A stretch of 54,466 bases of DNA, from positions 1-54,466 of the forward strand of contig CAZUMF010000001.1 of the NCBI GenBank assembly GCA_964621385.1, written 5' to 3'. The translations under genes were made by a program, and so were the position numbers. Position 1 is the stretch's first letter. Each line of letters starts with the position of its first letter. The notes beneath the pieces are model-generated. The model was not told where the DNA came from, made no database searches, and saw only the letters and a list, made by a program, of their open reading frames with translations. Shown here in pieces: positions 966 to 36,842 of the stretch. Source of the stretch: an uncultured Desulfohalobiaceae bacterium. GTDB lineage: Bacteria > Desulfobacterota > Desulfovibrionia > Desulfovibrionales > Desulfothermaceae.

Positions 966-1592
966 CTACTCCAGCAAGATGATGCTGAAACACTGGTATT
1001 CCTCTGTCACTTCCTTGGCTATCTCGTAAGATTTTCCAATATTCATAACTGTTTGGAAAATATCTATAGCACATGATTCAATAGAAGGCCGTCTGTCTTT
1101 TGGAAATTTACAAGGATTTGGGTAAGAACATATCTTACAGAGTGCACATGTATCCGAAACCAGACTAAAGGCTTTGTAGTACCCCTCCAAAAAAAGAAAG
1201 CGCTCTAAAGCAACCGTCCCTTTCCATGTACTGACTTGGATTCTTCTTTTTTGATTGTTGTTTCGATAAAAGTGAGTATTTTTCATTGTTCCATGAAGCA
1301 GCAAGGCTTTGTTATACTCACTCAGAATTACTTTGGTCTGTTCAGGGCTTGGAGTTTCTGGTGGACAACACCAGCTTGTGCCAAATTTGCTGCAACCGTA
1401 TTTGCATTTAAGCCGTACCCAATGAGCAATACAGATGTCATCTGTGCTCAAGGGAATAATGTCCTGTATATTGTACTTCTGACCGACTGCTATGAGTTTA
1501 TTGATTAATTCAGTTCCACTCTTTTTAACTTCAAATACAGTATCAATATCTTTTTCAGTTAAATCACACAACGTAATCAGCTTTTCATTCAT
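966..1592 (-). CDS. DUF2284-like Cys-rich metal-binding protein (copy 1)
   Basis: 208-aa ORF with Cys clusters (CKYGCSKFGTSWCCPP, CALCKICSYPNPC) typical of the predicted metal-binding proteins found beside corrinoid methyltransferase genes. A paralogue lies at 30894..31454. Ends in TAG, followed by 5 codons and then TAA. Confidence 0.6.
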   Translation of the reverse strand: MNEKLITLCDLTEKDIDTVFEVKKSGTELINKLIAVGQKYNIQDIIPLSTDDICIAHWVRLKCKYGCSKFGTSWCCPPETPSPEQTKVILSEYNKALLLHGTMKNTHFYRNNNQKRRIQVSTWKGTVALERFLFLEGYYKAFSLVSDTCALCKICSYPNPCKFPKDRRPSIESCAIDIFQTVMNIGKSYEIAKEVTEEYQCFSIILLE

Positions 1593-3186: not shown

Positions 3187-6100
3187 TCAAACTTTCGGAA
3201 GAAACTTCTCCAAATTTGGAAATTTGTCGTTCATATGGGGGATCCACATGGATCTGGCAAAAATCTTCTCAAACTTGGGATTCACAGTCAGCTCAATATA
3301 CTCGACCTTCCGCGCGAACTCATTGGCCTCATTTCTCTTGTCCGTGTTGAGCAGGGCCATACGAGCCCCGTCACCCGCAGCATTCCCAACGGAGACGACT
3401 TTATCGGGTTCACAGTCCAAAAACATGCCTAGCAGGGCAGCTGAAAGTCTGTCTATGTAGCTGCCGAACCCACCGGCCAAAACTACTTTATCGACTTTTT
3501 CAACACCATAGGTATCCAGCAAAATCTTGCTCCCGGCGTACATAGCTGCCTTGCCCAGCTGAATAGCTCTGATGTCGTCCTGGGAAACCACAACTGCCTC
3601 GCCGTGGGATGTTTCCTCCGATGTGGCGAGAACGAACTCTTTCGTCCCATCGACCTCTCGAAACCTTGGCGTATCTAAATCTTTCTTGAATTTTCCGGAT
3701 TTTTCGATGACTCCGGACAGGTACATTTGGGGTATGGCATCAATGATCCCGGAACCGCAGATACCTTTGGCGCCGGGATTTTCATCCATTTCAGTGCTCC
3801 AGCGATCATCGCCGATGATTTTAAAGCTGACCTCTTTGGTCTCCGGATCGATTTTTACTTTTTCGATCGCCCCAGGTGCTGCCCGCATGCCGTGTTTCAA
3901 CTCCGCACCTTCAAAAGCCGGCCCGGTGGCGCAGGAAGCCGAGATCAGCTTGTCCTTGTTGCCAAAGATCAATTCCCCATTGGTGCCGATATCGATGATA
4001 AGCTGAATTTCATCCTTCTTATACGGCTCCTCGCAGATGAGCACCCCCACATTGTCCGCCCCGACAAAACCGGCCTCTATAGGCAGGGAATGGACATAGG
4101 CCCCCTGAGATATGAGGATGCCGTTGCCCCGGACTTCCAATGTGTCCGCGGCGTCCTTCTCGGCATATATCGAGCAGTGCAGACAGCGCTTTGCTTCCTG
4201 GTTGACCATCTCCTCGTCAAAGCCCAATTCAACTTCGTCGAAAGTCATTCTCTTTGCCGGTTCGAGTATCGGCACCACCTGTCTGTTTGTTTTTTGAACC
4301 CCTTCTTTTGGTATGTCTTCCACTGCTTTGAATTGTGGAGGCCTGGCCTCCTTCATATCCATGCCAGAAAGAAGAAGCCCTATGGAAATGGCTGCTTCCT
4401 TACCGGCCGCTGTGGAGGAGACCACGTCAGTCGGACCGGTCACCACGTCCCCACCAGCGAAGACTCCAGCAACTGAGGTCTCCAAGGTCTCACTGTCCAC
4501 TTTGATCATACCGGAAGGAGTCTTTTCCAATTCAGGAAACAGATCCGCATTCGGCTTCTGCCCAATGGCCACGATCACAGTCTCGGTTTCAATGGTCGGG
4601 GCTGGGCCGTCTCCGTACCGAGGGGCGAATATCCCTTCGGAATCAAACACGGAAACACACTCGGCTGTCTCCACCGCCGAGACCCTGCCATTGCTGCTCA
4701 CAATCTGGGCCACACCCAGGGAATCGTGTACAATGACGCCTTCTTCCTTGGCCTGTTCGATTTCCAGATCCTGGGCCGGCATCCGTATTTCACATGTCAA
4801 ATCTGAGGATTCCAGGCAGATCAGATTGACTTCCTCGGCCCCCAGACGTTTGGACAGTCTGGCCGCATCAATAGCTACACTGCCTCCTCCAATGACCACC
4901 ACCCTGTCGCCCAGCTCGACTGTTTCTCCAGAGTTGGCCTGCTCCAAAAAAGCGACAGCCGGAATGACCCCCTGGGCGTCCTCGCCAGAAACGTTCAGTT
5001 TGAGGCTTGTCCAGCATCCGGACCCGATAAAAACGGCCTTGTATCCGGTATCAAAAAGTTCTTCAACGTTTTTGATTCTTGTGTTGGTCCTAATTTCTAC
5101 CCCAAACTCTTGGATAGAGGAAATTTCATTATCCAGAATATTCCGTGGCAATCGGTACTCGGGAATACCGTAACGCATCATGCCACCCGGTTTCGGAGCC
5201 GCCTCGAAAACAGTCACCGGGTGCCCTCTTCGGATCAAATCATAGGCGCAGGCAAGCCCGGAAGGTCCGGCGCCGATGATTCCAATTTTTTCCTCCTTTG
5301 AGATATCCACAGGTGTTGATTTCACTCTGCCTGACTGAAGTTCGTAATCCGCCAGGAAGCGATGTGCAGCCCGAATCGATATAGGTTCGTCGACTTGTCC
5401 CCTCTCGCAAACCTTTTCACATGCATGGGTGCAGACACGCCCCAAGATCCCTGCAAAAGGGAAGGAAATCCGGACAAGCTCCAAGGCCTCCTTGTACTTA
5501 TGCTGCGCAATCAGGTAGAGAAAGTCATCAATACTCAGTCCGGCCGGACACTCGACCCGGCATGGAGAATAACGACCCTTGTCAGTGGCTTCGGCTTCAG
5601 GTGGGATCTTGTACCCGAAATCACGGGCCTTGACATCGATGGAGTGGTGCATGCTCGGCGGGAAAGGCGACCGGCCGATGTATTTCGGATTCATGTTGAG
5701 ATAAAGATGATTCATGCAGGTATTGCCCACAATCGTCAGGTCTACGATATCCTGGCGTTTGATACCCGCCGCCGAGGCTGCCTCCTCGACCACACCGTTG
5801 AGCCCGTCCACAATGGCCCCGTTCAAGATTTCCAGGCCCTTGGGGTTGGTCATGGTGTAGCTGATCCGGGACATGACATCTTCGCCGTAGACCACCTGAG
5901 GATTCATCATCGAGGCCGTGGAGATAACCTTGCCGTTGGCCAAGTCTGTCAAGTAGCCGGCCACAGTGGATGTTCCCACATCTATGGCCATGCCGTAAGC
6001 CTTCTCATTGCGTCCCGGCTCAACCTTAATGATCTCCCTGTCCTGCCAGACAGTTACAGTGATCTTCCATTCGCCCTCGCGAATGGTGTTTTGCAACTCC

Positions 6101-6627
6101 ATGGCCACCTGATAATCAATGCCCAGATTTTTCAGGCCGTAAACCTTCTCCAAGGCACCCTGCAACCGTTCCAAGTCTCCCTGGTTTTCCTCCAAGGTTG
6201 GCTTTACAAGCTCCACATAATACTTCTTGACCGCGGGTTTTATTTCAATATCCAGTTCCTTGTGCGCCTTTCGGACTATCTGCTTGCCCATCCGGCTCTC
6301 CTCAGGAACAAAGACCACTACATTGCCCTGGACTTTCGCCTGACAGGACAAACGGTAGCCTTCCTCCTCCTGGCGGATATTGAAAAACTTTCTCTCCGAG
6401 GCTCCCATGGGAGAGAGACTGTCTCGTGAGGAATGAATGGCGTACTTTTCGAAATCCCCTTCTTCAACACGGATCTTACACGTCCCGCATATCGCCTGTT
6501 CTCCGCAAACACCTTCAAGATCGACACCAAGAGCAACAGAGGCCTCCTTGAGGGTCTTTCCCTCGCTGATATAACCGCGGGCTCCGGATGGTTGAAAAAT
6601 AACCAGATATTGATTTTTTTCTGCCAT
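3187..6627 (-). CDS. corrinoid reductive activase (2Fe-2S ferredoxin + ASKHA ATPase, COG3894-like) with an inserted GltD-like NAD(P)H:FAD/Fe-S oxidoreductase module
   Basis: 1146-aa ORF. Plant-type ferredoxin Cys motif (CGEQAICGTC...C95). ASKHA phosphate motifs AIDVGTST and IIDIGTNGE. Residues ~346-841 are a GltD/NfnB-like module (GRVCTHACEKVCER, GIIGAGPSGLACAYDL, VVVIGGGSVAIDAA, GVFAGGDVV, RCLHC). Confidence 0.8.
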   Translation of the reverse strand: MAEKNQYLVIFQPSGARGYISEGKTLKEASVALGVDLEGVCGEQAICGTCKIRVEEGDFEKYAIHSSRDSLSPMGASERKFFNIRQEEEGYRLSCQAKVQGNVVVFVPEESRMGKQIVRKAHKELDIEIKPAVKKYYVELVKPTLEENQGDLERLQGALEKVYGLKNLGIDYQVAMELQNTIREGEWKITVTVWQDREIIKVEPGRNEKAYGMAIDVGTSTVAGYLTDLANGKVISTASMMNPQVVYGEDVMSRISYTMTNPKGLEILNGAIVDGLNGVVEEAASAAGIKRQDIVDLTIVGNTCMNHLYLNMNPKYIGRSPFPPSMHHSIDVKARDFGYKIPPEAEATDKGRYSPCRVECPAGLSIDDFLYLIAQHKYKEALELVRISFPFAGILGRVCTHACEKVCERGQVDEPISIRAAHRFLADYELQSGRVKSTPVDISKEEKIGIIGAGPSGLACAYDLIRRGHPVTVFEAAPKPGGMMRYGIPEYRLPRNILDNEISSIQEFGVEIRTNTRIKNVEELFDTGYKAVFIGSGCWTSLKLNVSGEDAQGVIPAVAFLEQANSGETVELGDRVVVIGGGSVAIDAARLSKRLGAEEVNLICLESSDLTCEIRMPAQDLEIEQAKEEGVIVHDSLGVAQIVSSNGRVSAVETAECVSVFDSEGIFAPRYGDGPAPTIETETVIVAIGQKPNADLFPELEKTPSGMIKVDSETLETSVAGVFAGGDVVTGPTDVVSSTAAGKEAAISIGLLLSGMDMKEARPPQFKAVEDIPKEGVQKTNRQVVPILEPAKRMTFDEVELGFDEEMVNQEAKRCLHCSIYAEKDAADTLEVRGNGILISQGAYVHSLPIEAGFVGADNVGVLICEEPYKKDEIQLIIDIGTNGELIFGNKDKLISASCATGPAFEGAELKHGMRAAPGAIEKVKIDPETKEVSFKIIGDDRWSTEMDENPGAKGICGSGIIDAIPQMYLSGVIEKSGKFKKDLDTPRFREVDGTKEFVLATSEETSHGEAVVVSQDDIRAIQLGKAAMYAGSKILLDTYGVEKVDKVVLAGGFGSYIDRLSAALLGMFLDCEPDKVVSVGNAAGDGARMALLNTDKRNEANEFARKVEYIELTVNPKFEKIFARSMWIPHMNDKFPNLEKFLPKV

Positions 6628-11378: not shown

Positions 11379-12044
11379 CTATGAGGTTGTATTCCGTTCA
11401 TTGTTCGTGCGCCCCAGCTGAAGCCCTACCAGGATTGTGCCCACACCTTTTTCATTGACCCCTTTGAAATACTTTGTTTTCAAGAAATTGTCCGTCAGAG
11501 TGGACGGGTTGGCAAAAATAACGGCATTGAAGTTTATTAGATGGTTTTTTCCTTCCAGCCTGCACCACTCTGCGGGCAGACAGGGGGTATCAAAATAACA
11601 GGTTTTATCCATCAATTCCTTGGGAAAAGACATTCTGTCCTTATAAATGACAAAACACTCATGCATGAACCAGACGTTTTCTTGGCTTGACAACTTCGAT
11701 CGATCCTCTTCATCCCGCACCTCCTCCCCCACAACTTCATCACCTTTTTTCAATACGAGGCTCGGTAAACGGCCCCAGTCAAAATCCATATTTGTCAAGC
11801 CAACAACGATGTGTGTACACTGGAGGACTTCTCGTAAACCGCTGTTGAAGACTTTGCCCAATCCCATGAGACTTCTCTTTTCCGATTCAGTTTCAATCTC
11901 AAGTATTTTTTGGTGGTCTTCATCCAGGAGGAAAGCAGCCCCGATAATCCCCTTGCTGTTCTGCAAGGCACGAAGTAAGATATCGCTCAAAGAATCATTA
12001 TCCATCATTCCTCCAGGCAAGGTCTTCAGAGATAAAGACCTCAC
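11379..12044 (-). CDS. hypothetical protein coupled to ramA
   Basis: 221-aa ORF whose GTG start overlaps the ramA stop (GTGA). I recognise no domain. Ends in TAG. Confidence 0.4.
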   Translation of the reverse strand: MRSLSLKTLPGGMMDNDSLSDILLRALQNSKGIIGAAFLLDEDHQKILEIETESEKRSLMGLGKVFNSGLREVLQCTHIVVGLTNMDFDWGRLPSLVLKKGDEVVGEEVRDEEDRSKLSSQENVWFMHECFVIYKDRMSFPKELMDKTCYFDTPCLPAEWCRLEGKNHLINFNAVIFANPSTLTDNFLKTKYFKGVNEKGVGTILVGLQLGRTNNERNTTS

Positions 12045-13720
12045 GCCGTGATCAAACTATTCCAGCTAAAGACTTTTTCTTCACAGATCGCCTCGCATCT
12101 CTTACAGGCAATCCCATTGCACAAACCCAACTCTATGGAAATCTCGAAAAGATTCTCTCTTTCCTCCAGTTGAAGCGCCTTTTCCGGACATTCCTCAACA
12201 CAGAGGGCACATCCGATGCATCCAGAAAAAAGAATCTGTTTCTCCTGGCCAATGTCCTCAATGATTCGTAACCCATGAATTCCGGTATCGGCTATGTCTC
12301 TTTTCACCTTTTTGAAAATTTCAACACGGTTGTCTGTTTCTTTCAATCGCGGCAGGCCGAACTTTTTCAGGAAATGCTGGTACTGTCCGTAGGTCATCCC
12401 TTCAGTCCAAAAAGATAATTCCAGGATATACACTTTCTCAAAGACCTTGGATTCGGCGAACATACAATGATGTTGCCTCAGTTGATCCGAAACCCGCTGC
12501 ATGCGGAGGAGTTCATCCTCGTTTTGCAGCAAATCCCTGGCCATGGCCAGGGAGGTGTTCCCCACCTGATAGATCTTTGTTGCTCCGGCCGGAATCAGTC
12601 CCACGTCTTTGGCCTTCAGAGCATCCACATACGTTCCTGAAGCGCCTGACATATAGACTGTCCCGATCTTCTCCAAACCGATGCCCGCTTCATGACACAA
12701 GGCCATATGACCGGCGCGCACCGCCCCAAAAGCCTTTCCGGCTTCAATCACATCTTTGGAGTGAAACCTGACGCTGTTTGGCAAATAAATGTATCCATCC
12801 CTGGTGGCAATTTTTGGAAGCTGAATGAAACCATACTCCATGCCCTGGCTCATGAGGGCGATGACCCCGGTCCCTGTGATACCAACTGCCCGTTCTCCTT
12901 TGTGAAAGAGCTCACCAGTATTCGGGTCAACCGTATCGCCAGGATAGGAAAGCATGTCCTTGCCGAGAACATAGGTTTTCAGCCAACCAGAGACGGATTG
13001 ATCATCCTGATTTTTCCCTGCCGGCCGAGTCTTGGACTCCTTGGCTTCAAAGTCGACATCCGAAATGGCTCCAGGGAGCGCCAGCAGTCCGTCCCCTATC
13101 TGTTGCCCTTCCAAGGCCGGCCCGGCCGCCGTAGACCCTGAGTAGACCCTGCCGTTTGCGATCAAAGCCATTTCAGCATTGGTCCCATAATCAGTGGCAA
13201 TCGCGATTTCATCTTTTTCCAGCATGCCGGTTTGGATCATCATGGCCAAAGCGTCGGCCCCGACCTCATGCCTCACAGCAGGAGGAATCAAGACATCGGC
13301 CTTCGCCGGCAGGTCAAGTCCGCGTATCTGTGAGGTTTTGAACAATCCTCCATCCCTGTTGGGGGGGGTGACTCCCAAGGCCTGGAGTTTGCGTTTCCCG
13401 GCATAGGCCAGATCTCGTATCTCAATTTCCTGAAACAGGGACAGCTGAATGGGGTTTCCGCATACCGCCAGTTTGACAATCGACTCTTTGGCGACACCCA
13501 TGTTTTCAATTAGCTTATTAACGGCCTCCACAACAATCTCGTGGGTCCATTGCAGCCCAACTTCAACAGCGCAATGGAGATGATCCATGACATTGGCCCC
13601 CGGCAAAGGATGACGGGGGGTAACGACGGTCGAAAGGATCAATCCATCCTGCTCGAGATCGACTGCCTGCCCCCTGAATCCACTGGTTCCCAGATCCAAA
13701 GCAATACCAATCTTTGGCAT
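12041..13720 (-). CDS. ramA: methylamine methyltransferase corrinoid protein reductive activase, RamA type
   Basis: 559-aa ORF. The N-terminus IALDLGTSGFRGQ...LAVCGNPIQLSLFQEIEIRDLAYAG...TDYGTNAEMAL closely matches my recollection of Methanosarcina RamA. The C-terminus has two ferredoxin-type Cys clusters (CIGCALCVEECP, CNGIACKRCEAICE). Confidence 0.85.
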   Translation of the reverse strand: MPKIGIALDLGTSGFRGQAVDLEQDGLILSTVVTPRHPLPGANVMDHLHCAVEVGLQWTHEIVVEAVNKLIENMGVAKESIVKLAVCGNPIQLSLFQEIEIRDLAYAGKRKLQALGVTPPNRDGGLFKTSQIRGLDLPAKADVLIPPAVRHEVGADALAMMIQTGMLEKDEIAIATDYGTNAEMALIANGRVYSGSTAAGPALEGQQIGDGLLALPGAISDVDFEAKESKTRPAGKNQDDQSVSGWLKTYVLGKDMLSYPGDTVDPNTGELFHKGERAVGITGTGVIALMSQGMEYGFIQLPKIATRDGYIYLPNSVRFHSKDVIEAGKAFGAVRAGHMALCHEAGIGLEKIGTVYMSGASGTYVDALKAKDVGLIPAGATKIYQVGNTSLAMARDLLQNEDELLRMQRVSDQLRQHHCMFAESKVFEKVYILELSFWTEGMTYGQYQHFLKKFGLPRLKETDNRVEIFKKVKRDIADTGIHGLRIIEDIGQEKQILFSGCIGCALCVEECPEKALQLEERENLFEISIELGLCNGIACKRCEAICEEKVFSWNSLITA

Positions 13721-13900
13721 GTCTGACTCCGAATACTCAGACTCGATATAGCAAGGGTGATCAAATGCCCTTTATCAGCTTTCGAGATAAGTTATAAACT
13801 CAGATTCTATTTGTATTGTTTGATAAAAAAAAGTTTATGGAATGGAACAATTACTTGTAATGATGGAAAATTTGACTAGTATATGAAAAATGGACTTCAA

Positions 13901-14236
13901 CTATTTCCGATTATGCTGTAAAAGTGAACCATAATGCCGCTTGAAACTGGTGGAAGAATATTTACTCATTTTCCAGTCCGGGACTTTGCACTTTTCACAA
14001 GGTTTCGTAAACCACTTATTTCTGAGCCACCGAGCACCACGGCTGTTTTTTGAATTGTTGACCATGAATTGCATGTTGCAATGAGTGGTGATCCAGGCCT
14101 GTTCTCCTTTCTTTTCGATAGTTCTGATTCCATGAAGGACACCTTTCCGAGAAGGCCAGAGCTTGATTTTGTCAATAAGGCTGAAGAGCTCGACCCTCTT
14201 TCTGTAATACCTCTTGGCTGGTTCACATTTAACCAT
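13901..14236 (-). CDS. pylSn: PylSn, stand-alone N-terminal (tRNA-Pyl-binding) domain of pyrrolysyl-tRNA synthetase
   Basis: LWPSRKGVLHGIRTIEKKGEQAWITTHCNMQFMVNNSKNSRGARWLRNKWFTKPCEKCKVPDW aligns with the N-terminal domain of archaeal PylS (LWMSRTGTIHKIKHH...[28 protein letters not shown]). The ATG at 14236 overlaps the pylD stop (ATGGTTAA). The track ORF start at 14413 is an out-of-context extension. Ends in TAG. Confidence 0.8.
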   Translation of the reverse strand: MVKCEPAKRYYRKRVELFSLIDKIKLWPSRKGVLHGIRTIEKKGEQAWITTHCNMQFMVNNSKNSRGARWLRNKWFTKPCEKCKVPDWKMSKYSSTSFKRHYGSLLQHNRK

Positions 14237-14881
14237 TGGCAATTCTGACCAACATGGTTGCGGTTCCGATCTGCAATGGATCGTGTAAAATCCTCGATCC
14301 TGCTTCAGTGATCCCCTTTTGATCCAGACCAAGGGGCATGCCCGGAGCAGCAATGAACATCTCCCGGGAAATAACTTTGCCAGGGATGACTCCCGCCGCA
14401 TTCGTGGCTTCAAAGACCAATCGGCTCTGCTCCAAAGCTTTTTCCAAATGCTGAGTTATTGGAACCTCCTTTGAACTGATACTGCTCAGTTGTTCAGAAG
14501 CAGTTCGACTCTTGGTCCGGTCCAGATCGTACAGGGAGACATCGGCAAAATTGGGCAATCACTTTTTTTCCTGATTGCTTCCCCCAGTCCGCCAACATCT
14601 GTCTCATGGGCTACAAAAGCCGGACAACCTAAATATGCAGCGATCGAACAGACGGCTTCTGAAAAACCTGGAAGCGAACCCTGACCACTGGTTATTGGTA
14701 TAACAGCTGTGTGTAGGGTGGTCGAAAAGAATGGTGCATGCCACCTGCAAGTACGCGATTTTTCTTTACCCGGCTCTGGATTATCAGACTGATTCCTGAG
14801 CTATTTTTCAAATTGACTAATCAATCTTTTTAATAATTCCAGAATAATACAAAGAAGGTTTTTAACACTTCTTCCTTTCAT
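14229..14881 (-). pseudogene. pylD: pylD (3-methylornithyl-N6-L-lysine dehydrogenase), apparently disrupted
   Basis: The C-terminal frame (14229..14558) reads FEATNAAGVIPGK...PLQIGTATML, like the PylD C-terminus. A different frame upstream (14561..14881) reads AVIPITSGQGSLPGFSEAV...DVGGLGEAIRKK, like the PylD N-terminal domain. The two frames need a 1-nt correction near 14545..14563. An in-frame TAG lies at 14801..14803 with no start codon after it. No GxGxxG loop is visible, and the total is ~217 codons. Confidence 0.65.
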
Positions 14882-15034
14882 AATTCTTCATAATTATTGT
14901 TTAACGGTTTCGCTCTGCTTTGTCAACACGTGGCTGAGTATCTAAAGGGACTAGCTTCAATCTGAGCATTTTGTCTCATAGGACCGAACCCTTTTTGGAG
15001 TGTTCCTTCATACTTAAGAGTTAGCGAAAGTATT

Positions 15035-16048
15035 TCAGTGTTTCTGAGCCACTTGCAACATGGCCAGAAGATTTTCCATAGGTGTTCCAGGGGAGACGGC
15101 GCATCCGGGTGCAAGGATCTGGATACCTTTGGAGATGGATTCCTCGGCCTCTTTAGTGACGACATCCGGTTCTTTGAGGAACAAGGTGTTGGTGACATCC
15201 ACCCCTCCCATCAAAACCATGTCCGGGCCACATTTTTCTCTGGCGAATTGGACATCAGCCTTTGGTTCAAGGCTCAAGGCGCTTGTTCCTGTCTGGCCCA
15301 TCTGCTCAACGATAACATCAACCTTCCCACAGATATGAAGAATAGTTGGAACAGAAATGGCTGCAAACTGCTTGCTTTCATATTCCAGCACAAGATCCCC
15401 AAAGGTTTTGGGAGCCATTAGGTCTGGAGAAGCGGTCATATCTTCGCAACTGATGATATCCGCACCGGCTTCAATCAGGGCTTTGGCCAGAGCTGTGCCC
15501 GCCTTTTCTGCCACATCGAGAAAGGGCCGCAGCTTCTCCGGCTTCTTATAGGAGGTTTTCAGCAGGGGAACGGTGTCTATGAGATGGCCGGCAATCGAGA
15601 AAGGACCGACGATTCCTGCTACAATCGGAACTTCGTCGCCGAGTTCCTTCTTCAGGATTTGAACCGCCTTCAGGAGTTCGGGAATTCGCCCTCTGGACAA
15701 AAAATCATCCGGAAAGCTCGGAGTGTCCTCCAATTTATAAGGTGGCGGATGATCGATGCCCGGTATCCCCTCTCCCTGTCTGGTCTTCCCCGGTTTGACC
15801 TTACATCCGAGCGCTTCAGCCTCAAATGTTTGACAAAAAGGGAGTCTCACCGCGTCAAATCCAAGCACGGTATGGTTGGCCAGGGCCAGTTTGGCCATGG
15901 GTTCGGCTTTTTCATGCCCTTCAGGCCAGAAGGCTTGCACCTTCTCCATCTGATCATAGGTGACCAAACTATTGGCTGCGAAGCAGGGCATACGGTCCGG
16001 TTTCTCATGCTGCATGACTGCCATTACCCGTTGTTTTGCATTCATCAT
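15035..16048 (-). CDS. URO-D family methyltransferase, MtaA/MtbA-like (MT2-type), copy 2
   Basis: 337-aa ORF that is URO-D/MtbA-like throughout (RLPFCQTFEAEALGC, ILHICGK). Confidence 0.8.
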   Translation of the reverse strand: MMNAKQRVMAVMQHEKPDRMPCFAANSLVTYDQMEKVQAFWPEGHEKAEPMAKLALANHTVLGFDAVRLPFCQTFEAEALGCKVKPGKTRQGEGIPGIDHPPPYKLEDTPSFPDDFLSRGRIPELLKAVQILKKELGDEVPIVAGIVGPFSIAGHLIDTVPLLKTSYKKPEKLRPFLDVAEKAGTALAKALIEAGADIISCEDMTASPDLMAPKTFGDLVLEYESKQFAAISVPTILHICGKVDVIVEQMGQTGTSALSLEPKADVQFAREKCGPDMVLMGGVDVTNTLFLKEPDVVTKEAEESISKGIQILAPGCAVSPGTPMENLLAMLQVAQKH

Positions 16049-16099
16049 TGCCTCCTCTGTTGAAATACGTTCATATGTTCAACCCACCACGAAAAGACC

Positions 16100-17071
16100 T
16101 CAGGCATTGTCTCGGCTTTGTAAGACACACCGTTTCAGATTTCGGGTTGTCGCCTCGCTGTCAATTCCACAGCCAATGAAAACCAGACGCGTTTCATCCC
16201 TTCCTAACCAGTTTTCCCATTCTGTCTTGTTCCCGACATGATTCACAAAAACAGTTCGGTTTTCAAAGCGCACCGTTCCTTTCACTCGAAACAGCTCCCA
16301 GGGCAGATTGCGCATGAAATCATGGAAACACGTCTCATTGAGGATCTCCGGACCTTGGAAGGAAAAAGTCACAAAGAGCCGATCAGCCCTATCGAGATCT
16401 GTTTCAATGTCAGCGGTGCTTTTCAAGGCATTGATTGGCCGTGGCAGGTTCCAGGCACTGCCGGCAAACAGCGTCTGAAAGTCTACATTGCTGTATATCG
16501 TGGGAATAACCTCTGCATCAGGGACCAACTCATTGATCTCTTTCAAAAAAAAGAGAATCTGCTTTGGGTCAACAGTGTCGCTCTTGTTGAGGAGGATGAG
16601 GTCAGCCTCTTGGATTTGCTTGCTGAAAAGTGATCCAAAACAATCTCTGACCTCCCAGTTGTCGGCATCGACGATGGTGATGACCTTTTTGACGGCCATA
16701 TGGTCATGCATTGCAGCTTCATTCAAGGTTTCAACCACGGATACAGGGTTTCCCACACCGGAAAGTTCTATCAGGATCCTGGTTGGTCTCGACCTTTTCC
16801 AGAGGGCTTGCAGCGTCAGATTCAAATCGGCTTTCATTGTGCAGCAGACGCATCCGCTCGTGAGTTCAATCACATCTGAGCCACCTTGCTTGAGCATATC
16901 GCTGTCAAGGCCCACTTTTCCGAATTCGTTCACTATCACCGCGGTATTCCGCAGATCAGCGTCCCAAGCCAGTATCCTCTTGAGAAGAGTTGTCTTACCC
17001 GATCCCAGAAATCCGGCAATGACAAAGATCTCAGTTTGTTCTGTCAATAGAGATGGGCTCCCTTCCGTCAT
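16100..17071 (-). CDS. CobW/G3E-family GTPase metallochaperone (COG0523)
   Basis: 323-aa ORF with Walker A GFLGSGKTTLLKRIL, the metal-binding GCVCCTM motif and a CobW C-terminal-like domain. Confidence 0.85.
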   Translation of the reverse strand: MTEGSPSLLTEQTEIFVIAGFLGSGKTTLLKRILAWDADLRNTAVIVNEFGKVGLDSDMLKQGGSDVIELTSGCVCCTMKADLNLTLQALWKRSRPTRILIELSGVGNPVSVVETLNEAAMHDHMAVKKVITIVDADNWEVRDCFGSLFSKQIQEADLILLNKSDTVDPKQILFFLKEINELVPDAEVIPTIYSNVDFQTLFAGSAWNLPRPINALKSTADIETDLDRADRLFVTFSFQGPEILNETCFHDFMRNLPWELFRVKGTVRFENRTVFVNHVGNKTEWENWLGRDETRLVFIGCGIDSEATTRNLKRCVLQSRDNA

Positions 17072-17482
17072 GAATCACCTTCTTTTTCTACTCAAATTGA
17101 CAATATCAAAGAAATACCTTGTGAGCCTATCAGCGAATTGATGATTTTTCCTTCGATAGCGGACCAAATACATGGACTTCCGAAGATTTTTCTTATCCAA
17201 CCCTCCCCTGTGGCGACAACCATAAAAGCAGTAATTCTCATTTTGACTTTCCTATGATTATTGGACAACCAATTCTCCAAAGATATAAAAAGCTTGGGGG
17301 GAGGGTAAAAAAAACAGACCTGTGCATGTGCAAAGGCAGGCCTTGACTGAAATAAAAAGTTATAATAGGGTTTATCTTGAAATCTAGATAAAATATCTTC
17401 AAAAACCGCTTTTTCCGGGAAAAACACATAAAACCCCGAGAGACTCGCTCGAAACCGTAAACTCTAACAAAGGAGAGAATCC

Positions 17483-18592
17483 ATGAGAAAGCAACTGTTT
17501 CCCACGAATCTCAGAATTTTGCCAGTTGTGTTGTGTCTCTGTTTCCTGATTTTGACAACAGGAACCGTTTCAAGTGCTGAAAAACCTTATGCAGGAGAAA
17601 CCCTTGTTGTGGGGATCTGGTCCGGCCCCTATGCCGACCATTTCAAGGAAGCCATCGGCCAGCCCTTTGAGGAAATGACCGGCGCCAAGCTGCAGTACAA
17701 GTACTCCTGGGACTTCACCCCTGAAATCATCGCCGCTCCCGAGGACCAGCCCCCCCTCGACGTGGCCGAAACCGCCGATGCCGACTATCTTGTCGGCGTC
17801 AAGCGAAAGCTCTGGCTGCCCCTGCGCTACGAGAACATCCCGAATATCGACAACGTCTATCCTTACGTCAAAGACGAGATGTCCCCCACCATCGAATTCG
17901 GGGTCCCCTTCGACGTCGGGGTCCACGTCCTGTTGTACAGGAAAGACCTCGTCAAGCAGGCCCCGCAGTCCTGGGAGGATCTCTTCAGGGACGAATTCAA
18001 GGGCAAGATCGGGATCGAACGCTGGTTCCCCTACTGGGTCTACGTGGGCAGCTATCTCACGGACTATTCCCCCCCGGAACAGGCCATCTACAGCCAGGAA
18101 GGCCGGGACGCCATCCTGGAGCAGATGGGCAGGCTGAGCAAGCGCTGGTTCTTCTGTTACGAAAAAGGGGCTGAATTCGTCTCCGCCCTGGATGCCGGGG
18201 AAATCCTGGTGGGCAACTACTGGAACGGCTCCGGCACCACCCTGGTCCTGGAAAACCAGGATCGCTACGGCATCGTCTTCCCCGAGGAAGGCGGGGTGGC
18301 CTACCTGGATCATTTCTGCGTGGTCCGGGGCACGGAGAAACGCGACCTGGCCGAGGCCTTCATCAACTACACCGTGAGCAAGAAGGCCCAGATCGATTTC
18401 CTGAAACGCCACTACAACATCATGGTCTACAAGGATCTGGAAGGACATATTCCCGAAGTCATGAAGAAAAACGACCTGCAGCCAACCACCGTGGAAGAGT
18501 GGAAAAAGATCACCAAGATCGACGCCGAATTCCTCGAGCCCATGCGCAAGGAACTGGAAGACCACTTCCTCAAAGAAGTTCTTTCCAGGTAA
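17483..18592 (+). CDS. ABC transporter periplasmic substrate-binding protein (PotD/PotF-like family 1)
   Basis: 369-aa ORF with a Sec-type signal peptide (LPVVLCLCFLILTTGTVSSA). It precedes an ATPase and two permeases of the Pot type. SD aaaggagag lies upstream. Confidence 0.8.
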   Translation: MRKQLFPTNLRILPVVLCLCFLILTTGTVSSAEKPYAGETLVVGIWSGPYADHFKEAIGQPFEEMTGAKLQYKYSWDFTPEIIAAPEDQPPLDVAETADADYLVGVKRKLWLPLRYENIPNIDNVYPYVKDEMSPTIEFGVPFDVGVHVLLYRKDLVKQAPQSWEDLFRDEFKGKIGIERWFPYWVYVGSYLTDYSPPEQAIYSQEGRDAILEQMGRLSKRWFFCYEKGAEFVSALDAGEILVGNYWNGSGTTLVLENQDRYGIVFPEEGGVAYLDHFCVVRGTEKRDLAEAFINYTVSKKAQIDFLKRHYNIMVYKDLEGHIPEVMKKNDLQPTTVEEWKKITKIDAEFLEPMRKELEDHFLKEVLSR

Positions 18593-23383: not shown

Positions 23384-23444
23384 GGGGGGACTGTTGAGTT
23401 CAACGCCATGTTTGACAACTGTAAATGAAAACAGGAGGAAGTGT

Positions 23445-24917
23445 ATGCGACGCAATCTGCACGCCGGGAAACGACCCAACAGGGGGCTGCGCTTTGAGGT
23501 TTTCAGTGCTGACGACCTTGAAGACATCCACTTCGCCACCCTGGAAATCCTTGAAAAGACAGGGTTGTATTTTGCGGATGACCAAGCTCTGGAGATCCTG
23601 CATGGAGCCGGGGCTGTGATCGACAAAACCAGGAAGGTGGCCAAAATTCCCCCTTACGTGGTGGAAGAGGCCATCAGGTCGGCCCCTTCAAAGCTGGTTC
23701 TGGCCGGGCGCAATCCTGAAAACGACTTTGTCATGGAGGGCGGCCGGGTCGGTTTCACCAATTTCGGGGAAGGGGTCTTCATCAATGATCCCTATAGCGG
23801 CGAACACCGCAAAACCACCAAGGCAGACGTGGCTTCTTCCGCCCTGCTGGCGGATTACCTGTCTGAAATCGATGTCTATGAACGGGCCGTGGGCGCTGAA
23901 GACACCCCGGCTGCATCCGTTCAGTTGCACAATGCCGAAGCCTGGATGCCCAATACCTCCAAACACGGGTTTATGGGGCCTGGCAACGGCTACCTGCTGC
24001 ACAAGATCGTGGACATGGCCGCGGCAGCTGCTGGGGGGAAGGACAAACTGCAAGAGCGGCCCCTGGTCAGCTTTATCACCTGCCCGGTCAGCCCCCTGAA
24101 ACTGGAAAAGGACACCTGCGAGATCATCATGGAGGCGGCCCGTTCCGGGATGGCGGTCAACATCCTGTCCATGGCCATGGCCGGTGGTTCCTCACCCGTG
24201 ACCCTGGCCGGGACCCTGGTGGACCACAACGCCGAAATCCTGGGCGGCATCGTCCTCAGCCAAGCCACCCGCAAAGGGGCCAAAGTCGTTTACGGCAGTT
24301 CGACCACAGCCATGGATCTGCGTTTTGCCGCGGCCATGGTCGGCTGCCCGGAATGCGGGGTCATCAACGCCGGCGTGGCCCAGCTGGCCCGCTACTATCT
24401 TTTGCCCAGCTGGGTCGCGGGCGGGTAGGGCGACAGCAAGGTTTGCGATGCCCAGTCCGGTCATGAAAAAACCATCACTGGCCTGTTACCGGCGTTGGCA
24501 GGTGCCAACCTGATTTACGGCCTGGGAATGATCGAAATGGGCATGACCATCGATTACGGCCAACTGGTCATGGACAATGAATTCGCCAGAATGATCAAAC
24601 ATGCGGTCCAGGGGGTCCCGGTGAGTGACGAGACCCTGGCCGTAGAGGTCATGCGGGAGATCGGCATTGGCAAGGACTACCTCAGCCATGAACACACGTA
24701 CCGCCACATGAGGTCCCAGTCCCAGTCCCAGTTGATCGATCGCAGAACCCGGGAATACTGGGAAACCAATGGGGGCATGGATATTTTCCAGCGCTCCATG
24801 GAGCAGGCCAGATACATCCTGGAACATCACCGACCCGAGCCCATTGCAGACAGCGCTTTGGCTGAAATACGCCTGATTGTCGAGGAGGCTGAAAAAGAAC
24901 TGGGGGTTGGGCAGTGA
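23445..24917 (+). CDS. mttB: trimethylamine:corrinoid methyltransferase MttB with an in-frame UAG (pyrrolysine) at 24426..24428
   Basis: Track ORFs 23394..24428 and 24495..24917 share a frame and are separated only by TAG. The joined product is 490 aa, MttB-like throughout. SD aggagga lies before ATG 23445. Terminates in TGA. Confidence 0.9.
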
Positions 24918-25194: not shown

Positions 25195-26589
25195 ATGGGA
25201 AAGATCCGAACCCGTTTTGGTGACGGTTTTCCGCTTGAGCTCAGCTCAAAGGAACTCCGTCAGGATTTGGAGGAAGGCACTGCCGAGGCTGCGGACAGGG
25301 GGTCCATCGCCACGCTGGCAGAAGATGAGCTGCGCCATCTCGAGGATATTTTCACCTCAGCCCACCGTTTTATCGGCGTCGAGCCTGGAAAGGAAATCAT
25401 CCTGAGCTATGACGGGGCCCCTTTGAAGATGAAACGGGCCCAGGTCAATGTGGACCGGGTTCAGGCCCTGCAGATCTATGAAAAACTTCTGGGGGCGGAC
25501 ACTCTGGAATTGGCGCATGTCGATTACAGCTATAAGCCGGTCAAGCCGATTGTCACCTTTGAACAGCCACTGCTGGAACAGGTCTTTTCCGTGACCACGG
25601 CCCCGGTTTTTTACGGAGCCATGCCCAACTTAGGCCTTTACAGCCAACCGGACGGACCCTTCCCCAATCCGGCTGAACTCCTGCCTCTGGGCAAAATCAA
25701 GGAAGCCCGGGAAGCATCCGAGGCTGCGGTGGAGAATGCGGTCAAGGATATCGTCTATATTGGCAGACGCATGATTGAATCCGGGGCTGACGGGATCAAT
25801 CTCGACACGACCGGTGCTGCTGGTGACGCGGATTTTCAGGCCGCTCTTCTGGCCACTGAACAACTCAGGGCCAAATATCCCACGGTCTGCATTGAACTGG
25901 GCATGTCCGGGGAGTTTGTCCTTGGCATGCACGGTGGGTTGACCTATAAAGGGGAGCGTCTGGCCCTGATGTATCCCCACCAGCAGGTTAAAATGGCCGA
26001 AGCGGCCGGGGCGACCATCTTCGGCCCGGTCGCCAACACTAAGCCCAGCCGGTCGGTTCCCTGGAATCTGGCCAGGACAACGACCTACATGAAGGCCTGC
26101 TGCGAAGTGGCCACGATCCCTGTTCATCCGAATATGGGCATGGGGGTCGGCGGCATGCCCCTCACCGATCATCCGCCGCTTGATGTGGCCTCCAGAGCTT
26201 CCAAGGCGATGGTGGAGATCTGCCGGCTGGATGGGTTGTAGGTAGGGGTCGGCGATCCCATGGGTATGGCCATCACACATGCCGTTGCTTCGGGAATGGG
26301 CGGAATGAGGACAGCCGGAGATCTGGTTGCCCGCATGCAGATGACCCGGGGCATGAAAATCAAGGAAGCCAAAGCGCATGTGGCCGGAAAACTGAAGTGC
26401 TCGGTCTCTGATCTGACCGACCCGATCCTCATGCAAGAGGCCAGGGACGAACTCAAACTCGGGGTTCTCCATCCCTACGCCGGTTCTCCCAAGTGCATGG
26501 AGGCCAAGTTCAACATCGCAGCCCTTTTAGATATCGACATCAATTGCGTGAACCGTTTCCGCAACAATCTCAACCCAGGCTCGCTGTAA
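25195..26589 (+). CDS. mtbB: dimethylamine:corrinoid methyltransferase MtbB with an in-frame UAG (pyrrolysine) at 26239..26241
   Basis: Track ORFs 25195..26241 and 26260..26589 share a frame and are separated only by TAG. The joined product is 464 aa. The context [20 protein letters not shown] is as in MtbB. Terminates in TAA. Confidence 0.9.
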
Positions 26590-26614: not shown

Positions 26615-28051
26615 ATGCAGCCGAATCATTACGACATGCTCTCCCTTGAGGATGTGCAGCAAATCCATGATGCGTCCCTTCAGGTCCTGCAACAAACTGG
26701 ACTGGCAGTGGACCATACGGGCGCCAGACAGATTCTGGCTGATGCGGGCGCTGCGATCGAAGCCAGGGGCAATCGGGTCTTCATTCCTGCGGATCTGGTC
26801 GAATCAGCCCTAGCCAAGGCCCCGAAAAATTTCATTTGCGCCGGGCGAAGTGCGGAATACGACATGTTGGTCAGCAGCGACCAGTCCCATGCGCCTGTTG
26901 CCCGGAGCGTGGGAGGGCCTTTGAATTGTTTCGATTTTTCAAGTCATCAATCCCGCCAACTCACGATCCATGACTGTGCTGATCTGGCCCGCATGGTCGA
27001 TGCCCTGCCCAATCTGAATATCTGCGGCGGGCTATCTCCTCAGGATATTCCACAACAAACCTATGACATTGAGACCTTAAAGGTTTTATTGGAATATGGA
27101 AGAAAACACATCTGGGCCTTGACCACAGGATCCGCGAATCTCAAATATCAGCTGGAAATGATGGAAGTGGTCAGCGGCGGCAAGTTCGAACTGCAGCAAA
27201 GGCCTATCTGCAGCGGCATCGTCTGTCTCATCGAGCCCCTCCGCTTTCCCAGAGACGAAATCGAGAGGCTCCTGCTCTATGGTCGCTACAACCTCCCGGT
27301 GCGCGTTCCGCTCGTACCCATGGTCGGGGCCAATTCGCCCTACACCCTGGCTGGGACCATGGTCCAGACCAATGCCGAAGCCTTGGGAAGTCTGACTATC
27401 CTGCAAACCCTCTGTCCCGGCATTCCAACCTGGTACTACGTGATTATGGAGACCATGGAGATGCGCAAAGGATCCATGCAGTTGTTCAACCCTGAAGTCC
27501 TGCTGATTCTCAATGGCTTGTACCAGATGGCCCGCTATTATCAGCTTCCTGCGGTTGCTTCAGCCTTGATCGGCTCCAACTGCCAACCCCAGCAGATCAT
27601 GTTCGAACGCGGCACGAGCCTGTTCTTAACCGCATTGGCAGGGGTGAGCGAGATAGGCGGCGTGGGTGGTGTGGGCAATGGCATGATGATCAGTCCCCAG
27701 CTCCTGGCCATAGATAATGAAATGATCGCCTTTGTGAAACGTTTTCTCGAAGGATTTGAAATCAGTACTGACACCTTGGCTGTAGATGTCATCAATCGAG
27801 TTGGACACAGCGGGAAGTTTCTGGAAGACATACATACCCTGACCCATTTACGCAAAGAGATTCGTTTCAGGCCGAATCTGTTTGACTGGCGACCCTTTGT
27901 GGAACAGGGGACAGATGAAAAAACCATCTATCAACGCGCCCAGGAAACAATCGAGGCCATCCGTAAGGACCATGAGGTGGAGCCTCTGGAAGCGGAACAG
28001 CAAAGAGAACTCCACACCATCCTCTCAGCAGCTCAGCGAGATCTATTGTGA
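26615..28051 (+). CDS. MttB-superfamily methyltransferase without pyrrolysine (quaternary-amine-type paralogue)
   Basis: Uninterrupted 478-aa ORF that is MttB-like from the N-terminus (LSLEDVQQIHDASLQVLQQTGL) to the C-terminus, with no in-frame TAG. Confidence 0.85.
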   Translation: MQPNHYDMLSLEDVQQIHDASLQVLQQTGLAVDHTGARQILADAGAAIEARGNRVFIPADLVESALAKAPKNFICAGRSAEYDMLVSSDQSHAPVARSVGGPLNCFDFSSHQSRQLTIHDCADLARMVDALPNLNICGGLSPQDIPQQTYDIETLKVLLEYGRKHIWALTTGSANLKYQLEMMEVVSGGKFELQQRPICSGIVCLIEPLRFPRDEIERLLLYGRYNLPVRVPLVPMVGANSPYTLAGTMVQTNAEALGSLTILQTLCPGIPTWYYVIMETMEMRKGSMQLFNPEVLLILNGLYQMARYYQLPAVASALIGSNCQPQQIMFERGTSLFLTALAGVSEIGGVGGVGNGMMISPQLLAIDNEMIAFVKRFLEGFEISTDTLAVDVINRVGHSGKFLEDIHTLTHLRKEIRFRPNLFDWRPFVEQGTDEKTIYQRAQETIEAIRKDHEVEPLEAEQQRELHTILSAAQRDLL

Positions 28052-29170: not shown

Positions 29171-30571
29171 ATGGCCAAACACCTGACCAGACGGGGTGAC
29201 GGGGCATTCATTGAGATGAGCGCCGGCGAAATCATGAGAGACTTGGAGGAAGGGACTGCAGACGCTGCAGACAGGGGGAAAATCCCCCCTCTTTCTAAAG
29301 AAGAACTGGAAAAACTTCGAGATATCTTTTGCGATCCGGCCAAGTTTGTCAGCGTGGAACCGGGCAAAGAAGTGCCGCTGACTCATGATATCGGCACCTT
29401 GCGAGTGATGGGCGACCAGGGAAACAGTGGCGTTGGAATCCCCTTGAGCCGTGTTCAAGGCATCCAGGTGCACGAAAGGGCACTGTGCGCCGATACCATG
29501 GAGTTGGGGCATATCGACTACAGCTTCAAGCCTGTCAAACCGGTCATTGCCATGGAACAACAGGAGTTGGAAAACGCTTTGTTGTCTACGGTTCTGCCGC
29601 TCTTTTACGGAGCCATGCCCAATCTCGGGACGTACTATGAGCCCGACGGACCTTTCGGAAATCCTTCGGATTTGCTGCCAGCAGGCAAAATCAAGGAGGC
29701 TTACGCAGCTCAAGAAGGAGCAGTGGAACACGCAACACGAGACATGATCTTTGTCAGCGAAAAACTTGCAGAAGTCGGTTGCGATGGGATCAACATCGAC
29801 ACGACAGGGGCTGCCGGCGACACAGACTTTAAAGCCACCCTGCACGCTGTTGAACATCTCAAAAAGCATACGAAAATGTGCATTGAGGTTGGTATGGCGG
29901 GCGAATTTGTCCTGGGGATGCATGGAGGCCTCGAATATGACGGGAAAAAGCTCCATGGACTGTATTGCCATCAACAGGTAGAATTGGTTGAGAAATCAGG
30001 TGCGGATATTTTTGGGCCAGTGGTGAATACGAAACCGAGCAGATCCATGCCTTGGAATCTGGCCAGGGCGGTCACATTCATCAAAAAAACTGTGGAAACA
30101 TCCAATATCCCCATCCATGTGAATATGGGTATGGGGGTCGGCGGTTCACCTGTATTTGAGACCCCTCCCATTGACTCTGTGAGCAGGGCCTCCAAGGCGA
30201 TGGTGGAAATAGCCGGCGTAGACGGGTTGTAGGTAGGTGTGGGAGACCCCATGGGGATGTCTATAGCTCATGCAGTGGCAGCGGGAATGGGTGGAATCAG
30301 GACCGCCGGAGACCTGGTGGCCCGCATGCAGATGACCCGCAAGATGCGGATCAATGATGCAAAAGCCTACGTTGCCGAAAAGCTTCAGTTGTCCCCATTT
30401 GACCTGTCAGACGTCCACGTAATGAGAGAGGTCCGCGAGGAGCGAGACATCGGAATCATTACTTCAGTCCCAGGTTGTGCCAAGGGAATCGAGGCCAAGG
30501 CTCGCATCGCCGAGTTGCTCGATATCGAGATTGCAGGGGTAACGCGTCTCAAGGAAAAAATGAAACTGTAA
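29171..30571 (+). CDS. mtbB: dimethylamine:corrinoid methyltransferase MtbB (copy 2) with an in-frame UAG (pyrrolysine) at 30230..30232
   Basis: Track ORFs 29171..30232 and 30239..30571 share a frame and are separated only by TAG. The joined product is 466 aa. [45 protein letters not shown] matches my recollection of Methanosarcina MtbB. Terminates in TAA. Confidence 0.9.
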
Positions 30572-30893: not shown

Positions 30894-31454
30894 ATGAGAA
30901 ACGATAGCTCCGAAAAAGAATTGACACACGCTCTCAAAGAGATGGCCAGCAAACACAATGTAAAGCTTTTTTCCTATGATGTGCAGCAAATAAAGCCTTC
31001 TGAGAGTATCCGGCTCAAATGTCAAGTGCCGCTTTGCGAGTACTACGGGGTCTGCAAAGTCTGTCCTCCACATATCCCGAGTGTGGAAGAATTCAGAAAA
31101 ATACTGAAAGATTACACGCAATGTTTTCTGGTTGTCTTTCAGGAAGATATAGATAATATTGCCCTCTACCGCCACGACTACCGGGCAGAATTGAAACTGG
31201 CAGAAGCAGTGTCTGAGTTGGAGAATACTGCCTTTGTGCACGGAGAATACATGGCCTTGGGTTTGACAGTTGGCGGCTGCAAATTATGCAGCGATTGCAC
31301 CGCTGCCGGTGAACCGTGCCGGCATCCTTTCAAGGCCCGTCCCAGCCCAGAAGGATTTGGCATTGACATTACCAGGATGGCACGGGAAGTTGGCGTGCCT
31401 GTGGAATGGCCCCCTCGGAAAACGGTCAATTTCATAGGTCTTGTTCTCATATGA
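30894..31454 (+). CDS. DUF2284-like Cys-rich metal-binding protein (copy 2)
   Basis: 186-aa ORF with CQVPLCEYYGVCKVCPP and CKLCSDCTAAGEPC motifs. Paralogous to 966..1592. Confidence 0.6.
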   Translation: MRNDSSEKELTHALKEMASKHNVKLFSYDVQQIKPSESIRLKCQVPLCEYYGVCKVCPPHIPSVEEFRKILKDYTQCFLVVFQEDIDNIALYRHDYRAELKLAEAVSELENTAFVHGEYMALGLTVGGCKLCSDCTAAGEPCRHPFKARPSPEGFGIDITRMAREVGVPVEWPPRKTVNFIGLVLI

Positions 31455-32621: not shown

Positions 32622-33425
32622 ATGGCCTCCTACCTGAATGCTCATCCTGAAAAGCTCCCGGATTTTTTTGAGCAGCAAGATGCTCTTGAGATGTTCGCAA
32701 ATGTGTATGGCATGCTGAAACAGAATGTCCGGAATCTTGCTGTCAAACTTGCCAGTCGGCTCATCATCAAAATTGCAAAGCAGATTGCTGATACTGGATA
32801 CCGTTCCGGCAAACTGAAACTGGTCAAGGGTTGTGCAGATGGAGCCGAATTGGAATTGGACAGGAGTCTGGAACGATATACTGAGGAACCGGAAATGGGT
32901 ATTGCTGACTGTTTAATGTCACTTACCAGGTATAAGGAACGTGAAGCTTTTGTCATGATATTTGACCGCAGCTATTCAATGAGAGGTATGAAAATCATCC
33001 TTGCCGCTATTACCGCAGCCTCAATTGCCAGACATTTCAGAAGAAATTATGCGATCCTTGCCTTCAGCAATGATGTCTCCGTTATCAAGGGGATCGATTC
33101 CACAGACGGACCCGAGACCATTCTTGAACGATTGTTTGCCTTGACGCTACAAGGAGATACGGACATTCACCAGGCTCTGGAAAAAGGCCTGGCCCATATC
33201 AGAAAATTTGAACGAAAACGTGGTCTTATCCTCACGGATGGGGCTTGGAACCGAGGAAAGAACCCTCTCTCAGTCGCTGGTCGCTTTGACAAGCTCAGTG
33301 TGATCGGTTTTCCACCGGCCAACATGGATAAAATCAGACCATTAGCCTTGAAAGGTCAGGGTGAACTCTCCTTTGTTGAAGATGAAACCACAATCGGCGG
33401 AGCCATCCTCAAGTCACTAAATTAA
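32622..33425 (+). CDS. von Willebrand factor A (VWA) domain protein, partner of the MoxR ATPase
   Basis: 267-aa ORF with a MIDAS-like DRSYSMRG motif. There is no SD before ATG 32622, and its frame stays open for 29 codons upstream, into the end of the ATPase gene. Confidence 0.7.
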   Translation: MASYLNAHPEKLPDFFEQQDALEMFANVYGMLKQNVRNLAVKLASRLIIKIAKQIADTGYRSGKLKLVKGCADGAELELDRSLERYTEEPEMGIADCLMSLTRYKEREAFVMIFDRSYSMRGMKIILAAITAASIARHFRRNYAILAFSNDVSVIKGIDSTDGPETILERLFALTLQGDTDIHQALEKGLAHIRKFERKRGLILTDGAWNRGKNPLSVAGRFDKLSVIGFPPANMDKIRPLALKGQGELSFVEDETTIGGAILKSLN

Positions 33426-36769: not shown

Positions 36770-36842
36770 AATCACCTCGTCCTGAATTAAACATTGACCG
36801 CAGTTACGACAATATTTGATCTTCCCTTTTCCTATCACCCCC

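Follow-up and report, generated by a model that had tools for sequence, protein, structure and literature searches.

The window analysed here, a 54,466-nucleotide (nt) stretch of DNA from an uncultured Desulfohalobiaceae bacterium (GenBank assembly GCA_964621385.1, contig CAZUMF010000001.1), carries directly upstream of an intact pylSn a damaged copy of pylD, the gene for 3-methylornithyl-N6-lysine dehydrogenase, which is the last enzyme of pyrrolysine (Pyl) synthesis. We read this locus as a recently broken pylD at its ancestral site beside a functional pylSn, with working PylD activity most likely supplied from elsewhere, and give this reading a probability of roughly 0.85. Its structural part, that 14229..~14800 is a non-functional pylD pseudogene, is very probably correct. 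Coordinates are those of the whole window, and the relic, pylSn and the genes of the surrounding block all lie on the minus strand. The pieces in question are as follows, with identities from tblastn.

13901..14236, minus strand: pylSn, for the small subunit of the split bacterial PylRS, which binds tRNA(Pyl); 111 amino acids (aa), intact, TAG stop.
14229..14546, minus strand: C-terminal pylD fragment; ~105 codons plus TAA, 57% identical to residues 173-277 of P0001.
14544..14548, strand ".": deletion junction; ~190 nt or ~63 codons missing, not a multiple of three.
14546..14722, minus strand: N-terminal-domain pylD fragment; ~58 codons, 62-69% identical to P0001-P0004, without a start codon of its own.
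14723..14800, minus strand: coding-like stretch with no significant PylD match; 47% GC.

Intact PylD proteins are of uniform build. A search of 5.8 billion proteins, including those of sample SRR12088347, returned 180 PylD homologues, and all of the best 120 are 264-322 aa long, which rules out a short or split functional PylD family. In a hidden Markov model (HMM) of 282 positions built from 120 PylDs, 14722..14546 corresponds to positions 51-106 (60 bits) and 14546..14232 to positions ~170-278 (122 bits), in different frames, with E-values of 1e-20 and 1e-39 for the two fragments, and nothing in any frame of the relic matches positions 1-50 or 107-169. With P0001, a 277-aa protein that is the closest intact PylD, tblastn places residues 52-109 on 14719..14546 and residues 173-277 on 14546..14232 in another frame, so that the two segments meet at the same base, 14546. 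Both searches agree with a preliminary description of this DNA, made from its letters, in finding PylD-like sequence in two frames; the N-terminal-like piece described there as 14561..14881 holds as far as homology goes at 14722..14546 (a local alignment to the Pfam domain PylD_N reaches back to ~14758 at most), and the portion 14804..14881 matches nothing.

The relic scores 113.6 bits in total, over two stretches, with the PylD family model TIGR03911 (annotated as 3-methylornithyl-N6-L-lysine dehydrogenase), below its cut-off of 150.05 bits, and it covers positions 25-91 of the 112 in PylD_N (PF21455) as against 3-109 in intact P0001, so that neither family membership nor a complete N-terminal domain is found. 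No single open reading frame (ORF) of ~260-320 codons with a start is present either, the sequence being spread over two frames with no in-frame start after the TAG at 14801..14803. Descent from pylD is established by the significant homology to PylD, by the position directly upstream of pylSn and by synteny with L001, the contig from Logan (a public assembly) of run SRR13694683 that encodes P0001.

At the junction, blastn aligns 320 nt of L001 with 130 nt of the window, a loss of 190 nt; the apparent frameshift is therefore the scar of a deletion and not a homopolymer slip, and the earlier proposal that one extra base at ~14547..14555 would rejoin the frames does not survive. An alignment of the relic with its homologues (A1) has a 70-column gap at this point, and the missing block holds the GCGPVG of close homologues. 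Against Methanosarcina barkeri PylD (pyrrolysine synthase; solved structures PDB 4J43 and 4Q39; 259 residues), the fragments align to residues ~48-102 and ~165-257, whereas residues 1-47 and ~103-164 have no counterpart; the lost block thus corresponds to residues ~103-164 of 4J43, including VVGLGKVG. Structure and HMM alignments (positions 107-169 in the latter) agree that the Rossmann segment is missing, no full-length profile alignment was obtained, and a GxGxxG loop is absent from all frames of the relic, as the preliminary description had noticed. An NAD-dependent dehydrogenase needs the dinucleotide-binding loop of its Rossmann fold, and with the equivalent of VVGLGKVG lost no such enzyme would be expected to form. 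With no start codon, with the first ~50 residues and the Rossmann dinucleotide-binding segment gone, and with the remaining parts out of frame, the locus cannot encode PylD.

The gene was destroyed by two lesions. A 5' truncation took about 50 codons from its beginning, start codon included, and a 190-nt out-of-frame internal deletion took the last part of the N-terminal domain together with the first beta-alpha-beta unit of the Rossmann fold, which bears the GxGxxG loop. What is left has a GC content of 47-51% in the pylD pieces, and the C-terminal fragment, which lies inside an ORF at 14229..14558, keeps the motifs IAAPGMPLG and LHDPLQIGTATM intact. The stretch 14723..14800 may be what remains, in scrambled form, of PylD residues ~26-51. 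We also considered a hidden PylD N-terminus in another frame, where a faint K..R.L.G...H occurs at ~14730..14770; it has no HMM support and we do not claim it.

The place of the relic in its lineage emerges from the neighbouring genes. In the order of minus-strand transcription, a CobW-type GTPase gene, an MtaA/MtbA-type gene and a 312-nt AT-rich stretch precede the PylD-like sequence and pylSn, which are followed by ramA, a conserved ORF of unknown function and a pair of histidine kinase (HK) and response regulator (RR) genes.

16100..17071, minus strand: CobW-type GTPase.
15035..16048, minus strand: MtaA/MtbA-type methylcobamide methyltransferase of the URO-D fold (NF004889, 335 bits).
14882..15034, minus strand: AT-rich spacer 3' of the mtaA-type gene; 39% GC, synteny breakpoint 5' of the relic.
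12041..13720, minus strand: ramA, reductive activase of methylamine corrinoid proteins (TIGR04270, 732 bits).
11379..12044, minus strand: conserved ORF of 221 aa, the last gene of the block common with L001, 62% identical to the L001 ORF.

In L001 the order is HK-RR-pylD-pylSn-ramA-ORF-pylT-pylSc, with an intact pylD of 277 aa, and the genes beyond ramA are these.

L001, 5997..6614: ORF of 205 aa, counterpart of window 11379..12044.
L001, 7073..7147: tRNA-Pyl with anticodon CTA, directly after the conserved ORF.
L001, 7242..7451: start of pylSc, after the tRNA-Pyl.

Window and L001 thus have in common the block pylD-pylSn-ramA-ORF, with identities of 79% for PylSn, 71% for RamA, 70% for RR, 62% for the ORF, 61% for HK and 57-63% for the PylD pieces (72-73% at the DNA level). 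They differ in that the block is preceded by HK-RR in L001 and by cobW-mtaA in the window, and followed by pylT-pylSc in L001 and by HK-RR in the window, a second synteny breakpoint; the L001 pylD is intact, whereas that of the window lacks 190 nt internally and its 5' end. From this synteny, pylD-pylSn-ramA-ORF is an ancestral block and the relic occupies the ancestral pylD site of the lineage. The 5' truncation coincides with the breakpoint at which mtaA/cobW in the window replaces HK-RR in L001, and a rearrangement would have cut off the 5' end of pylD, the 190-nt deletion presumably being a separate event. For the spacer at 14882..15034, blastn finds no counterpart within the window or among 167 related loci. 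The ORF at 11379..12044, which is without a Pfam or NCBIfam match, comes after ramA in the window and in L001 and seems to accompany the pylD-pylSn-ramA block.

The surviving parts of the relic are well preserved. It keeps 34 of the 36 columns that are conserved at 90% or more among the 120 PylDs, its two pieces are free of internal stops and indels, and three-taxon comparisons give the window a branch (0.26-0.33) that does not exceed those of intact homologues (0.28-0.41). A branch of this length together with the conserved columns indicates that this pylD was under purifying selection until recently, and pieces that are open, indel-free and as conserved as functional PylDs point to lesions that are evolutionarily recent. 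The suggestion of a decaying second pyl locus is right in that this is a remnant; nothing marks it as a duplicated second locus, synteny with L001 places it at the ancestral site, and the retained parts have not decayed.

The gene that follows the relic appears to be functional. PylSn matches its family model TIGR03912 (N-terminal tRNA(Pyl)-binding domain of PylRS) over the whole profile (1-89 of 89; 129.3 bits against a cut-off of 51.15) in an intact ORF, with 79% identity to the proteins of L001 and of another contig, L172, and mostly 64-79% across other PylSn proteins. Its ATG (14236..14234) overlaps the TAA of the upstream frame (14231..14229) by 8 nt inside ATGGTTAA, so that both the intact pylSn at 13901..14236 and its overlap with the pylD stop stand as first described. 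Overlaps of 8-20 nt between pylD and pylSn recur in L004, L168-L172 and L176; L001 has a gap of 13 nt instead, so the overlap is not universal. No Shine-Dalgarno-like run was found 5' of the pylSn ATG, and a scan of 13600..15200 for consensus promoters and terminators found none. We propose that pylSn is probably co-transcribed with ramA and that its translation is probably coupled to that of the C-terminal pylD frame, which is still open and has a stop codon overlapping the pylSn ATG.

A further proposal, which complements the pseudogene explanation rather than competing with it, is that selection keeps the C-terminal frame open (ORF 14229..14558, TTG start) as a leader that delivers ribosomes to the pylSn start. 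We regard it as tentative and, on balance, unlikely. It would account for the 8-nt overlap beside a pylSn ATG that lacks a Shine-Dalgarno-like run, for the recurrence of the overlap in five related locus types and for 105 codons still without a stop or indel; recency by itself, however, accounts for the open frame, the AGGA 5' of the TTG start is rather distant (about 11 nt), and L001, with its gap, lacks such an overlap.

The setting of the relic bears on whether the organism still uses Pyl. The window is a methylamine-utilisation island. Besides pylB, which is intact, it has ramA, a gene for a RACo-type activase, genes for corrinoid proteins and three genes of MtaA type, and its one mtmB, two mtbB and two mttB have exactly one in-frame TAG apiece, at the canonical place. 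In each of these five methyltransferase genes full-length family homology is found on both sides of a TAG at a conserved position, which identifies it as a Pyl codon, and Rfam PYLIS_2 or PYLIS_3 matches occur in four of the five.

23394..24917, plus strand: mttB, TAG at 24426.
25195..26589, plus strand: mtbB, TAG at 26239.
29171..30571, plus strand: mtbB, TAG at 30230.
42972..44528, minus strand: mttB, TAG at 43467.
45843..47240, minus strand: mtmB, TAG at 46620.
33461..34555, plus strand: pylB (methylornithine synthase), intact; TIGR03910, 457.1 bits against a cut-off of 348.2.

Because pylB, pylSn, ramA and the five TAG-containing methyltransferase genes are intact, the cell appears, from its gene content, still to depend on pyrrolysine. 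Of the Pyl components, the window holds pylSn and pylB only; none of pylC, pylSc and pylT (tRNA-Pyl) occurs within its 54 kb. The pylB gene stands alone ~19 kb from the relic, preceded 5' not by pylSc but by genes for a MoxR-type AAA ATPase and a VWA-domain protein (31585..32568 and 32622..33425), and no pylC follows it in the window. The pyl genes of this genome are thus dispersed, with pylB alone and pylD-pylSn tied to ramA. As to what lies upstream of the relic, the preliminary description was right to name a URO-D-type gene (15035..16048) and no pylC; it also reported no pylB, a gene that the window does contain.

Among the 44 predicted genes, TAG is the stop of 6, TGA of 21 and TAA of 17, and pylSn itself ends at a TAG (13901..13903); amber is not avoided as a stop in this Pyl-using genome. 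Between the Pyl-type mtbB genes lies an MttB-family gene without an in-frame TAG (26615..28051, plus strand; 360 bits against the TIGR02369 cut-off of 525), which presumably belongs to the non-Pyl members of this family and acts on another substrate.

Where, then, would PylD come from? Since pylC, pylSc and pylT are not in the window, they must lie elsewhere if the Pyl system works, and we think it probable that a working pylD likewise exists in the genome outside the window, most likely sitting with them. Several points weigh against this reading as a whole. No intact pylD of this organism was found, nor were pylC, pylSc and pylT in the 54 kb; the relic stands at the ancestral pylD site, so it could be the only copy; the Logan contigs that match the window may derive from the same reads, a population variant still being compatible with them, and they are broken within the C-terminal fragment, at a place between 14316 and 14427; and both the translational coupling of pylSn and its co-transcription with ramA are things that we infer.

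Attempts to find further loci of this organism gave the following. Scans of GTDB representatives and of JGI metagenome contigs with the PylD alignment returned no self-hit, which places the organism in neither collection. Exact matches of the window's RamA, PylB and a 336-aa form of MtaA occur in Logan run SRR12088347 only, and the exact look-up of its PylSn and of a 337-aa MtaA form found neither on record. SRR12088347 is the source of none of the closest PylD matches that we traced (P0004, P0007, P0008, P0002 and P0005). One of them, P0007, is from the sibling run SRR12088348, on a 1450-nt contig (L172) that carries the 3' end of pylC, an intact 277-aa pylD and pylSn; this contig could represent another organism or a second pyl locus, and is not assignable to this organism. 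A search for the organism's pylSc locus with the 70-aa PylSc N-terminus of L001 gave no candidates, and no paper on SRR12088347 was found.

It is improbable, though of consequence if true, that the relic is the organism's only pylD and that the last step of Pyl synthesis is no longer possible. The lineage could then be in the course of a recent loss, with its Pyl-dependent genes not yet decayed (caught, as it were, losing the 22nd amino acid), or it could be a natural auxotroph that obtains free pyrrolysine or the PylD step from its neighbours, or uses another dehydrogenase. The relic does hold the position of the intact L001 pylD, which lies with pylSn, pylT and pylSc, and the search of 5.8 billion proteins, SRR12088347 included, gave no match above 57% identity; among the best 80 loci of the genome scan no assembly was seen twice by eye, paralogues not having been tested systematically; and with lesions this recent, intact Pyl client genes are expected either way. 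Nevertheless, a working system would already require pylT, pylSc and pylC at some other place, and in the related loci whose gene calls we read pylC and pylD are adjacent; pylB, pylSn and the five TAG-containing methyltransferase genes are undamaged; and that one gene should have suffered two separate deletions is better explained by relaxed selection on a redundant copy than by the loss of an essential one. To our knowledge, natural pyrrolysine auxotrophy has not been reported.

That the split is an artefact of sequencing or assembly, with an intact gene behind it, is very unlikely. The frame change does fall among short homopolymers (CCC, AA and TTTT), and a break in the Logan contigs lies 120-230 nt downstream of it, but a one-base correction would restore neither the 63 missing residues nor the N-terminus. 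Three Logan contigs of run SRR12088347 are 100% identical to the window, and one of them (L087), equivalent to 14428..17662, is unbranched and spans both the junction and the TAG at 14801..14803, so that a second assembler gives the same sequence and an assembler-specific error is excluded. The Logan contigs also break elsewhere every 3-14 kb, and we attach no meaning to the break at 14316-14427.

The TAG itself lies at the 5' border of the relic, in the following feature.

14801..14881, minus strand: mini-ORF from ATG 14881 to TAG 14801..14803; 26 codons, AT-rich, not part of PylD.

As first described, this TAG is codon 27 from the ATG at 14881, and no later in-frame ATG, GTG or TTG precedes the conserved part. 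The GC content of 14804..14881 is 23%, against 47% in 14723..14800; neither tblastn nor HMM finds in the mini-ORF any similarity to the conserved PylD N-terminus (MTRL..D...I...L..YD.EL..KTG..L.GIACHA); and no gene is called there in the Logan contig L087. Low GC, the lack of PylD homology and the missing gene call put the TAG at the edge of non-coding DNA: it closes a chance mini-ORF and is neither a recoding signal nor a Pyl codon, family homology being absent 5' of it. The idea that it is decoded as pyrrolysine, which would make Pyl synthesis depend on Pyl, can be dismissed. In its favour, the N-terminal fragment has no in-frame start 5' of it other than the ATG at 14881, from which it is divided by one TAG. 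The 26 codons of the mini-ORF, however, bear no relation to the PylD N-terminus, aligned homologues show no TAG or gap at that position, and the read-through product would have ~130 residues with PylD_N positions 25-91 of 112 only, running out of frame to a stop at ~14489 without a Rossmann domain or NAD-binding loop.

The canonical bacterial pyl cluster, as in Desulfitobacterium hafniense, is pylTScBCDSn. In many related Desulfobacterota loci PylB, PylD and PylSn matches appear in this canonical order and spacing; the order pylB-pylC-pylD-pylSn recurs among them, and wherever gene calls were read, the gene directly upstream of pylD is pylC. The window resembles this arrangement in having pylD directly 5' of pylSn, with an overlapping start, among genes for methylamine methyltransferases, corrinoid proteins and RamA; it departs from it in having a mere relic of pylD, no pylC, pylSc or pylT in the vicinity, and a pylB that stands alone 19 kb off beside the MoxR and VWA genes. 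The usual pyl gene orders have been surveyed, and clusters can be interrupted (Borrel et al. 2014, PMC3941956). A literature search for pylD pseudogenes brought up a single precedent, and it concerns pylT: Methanomassiliicoccus luminyensis carries a probable pseudogene of pylT and has two pyl clusters (Borrel et al. 2014, PMC3941956). There, too, a Pyl user keeps a non-functional copy of one pyl component beside working ones; what has degenerated in that organism, however, is a tRNA gene, with a second, complete cluster on record, whereas here it is pylD and no second copy was seen.

Most likely, then, the locus is an ordinary gene relic, a modest curiosity in the evolution of pyl cassettes and not a new mechanism. 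In annotation it should be labelled a pylD pseudogene and its TAG not counted as a Pyl codon, and no complete pyl cassette should be deduced from the pairing of pylSn with "pylD" here. The locus shows a pyl cassette being reshuffled by rearrangement and deletion in a Desulfobacterota-like lineage. It would gain importance only if the genome had no other pylD, since Pyl would then, for the first time in a natural case, be used where its synthesis is incomplete.

Other features of the island concern corrinoid metabolism. The window encodes two different corrinoid activases, RamA and a RACo-type protein of 1146 aa with a 2Fe-2S domain (3187..6627, minus strand), the latter with a Fer4_20 plus pyridine-nucleotide-disulphide-oxidoreductase module inserted between the middle and C-terminal RACo domains. 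Genes of the DUF2284 family (predicted metal-binding) lie beside cobO/mtaA (966..1592, minus strand) and after mtbB (30894..31454, plus strand). A cobalamin riboswitch (36932..37161, minus strand; 98.6 bits) stands directly upstream of a cbiL-type precorrin-2 C20-methyltransferase gene at 36035..36943.

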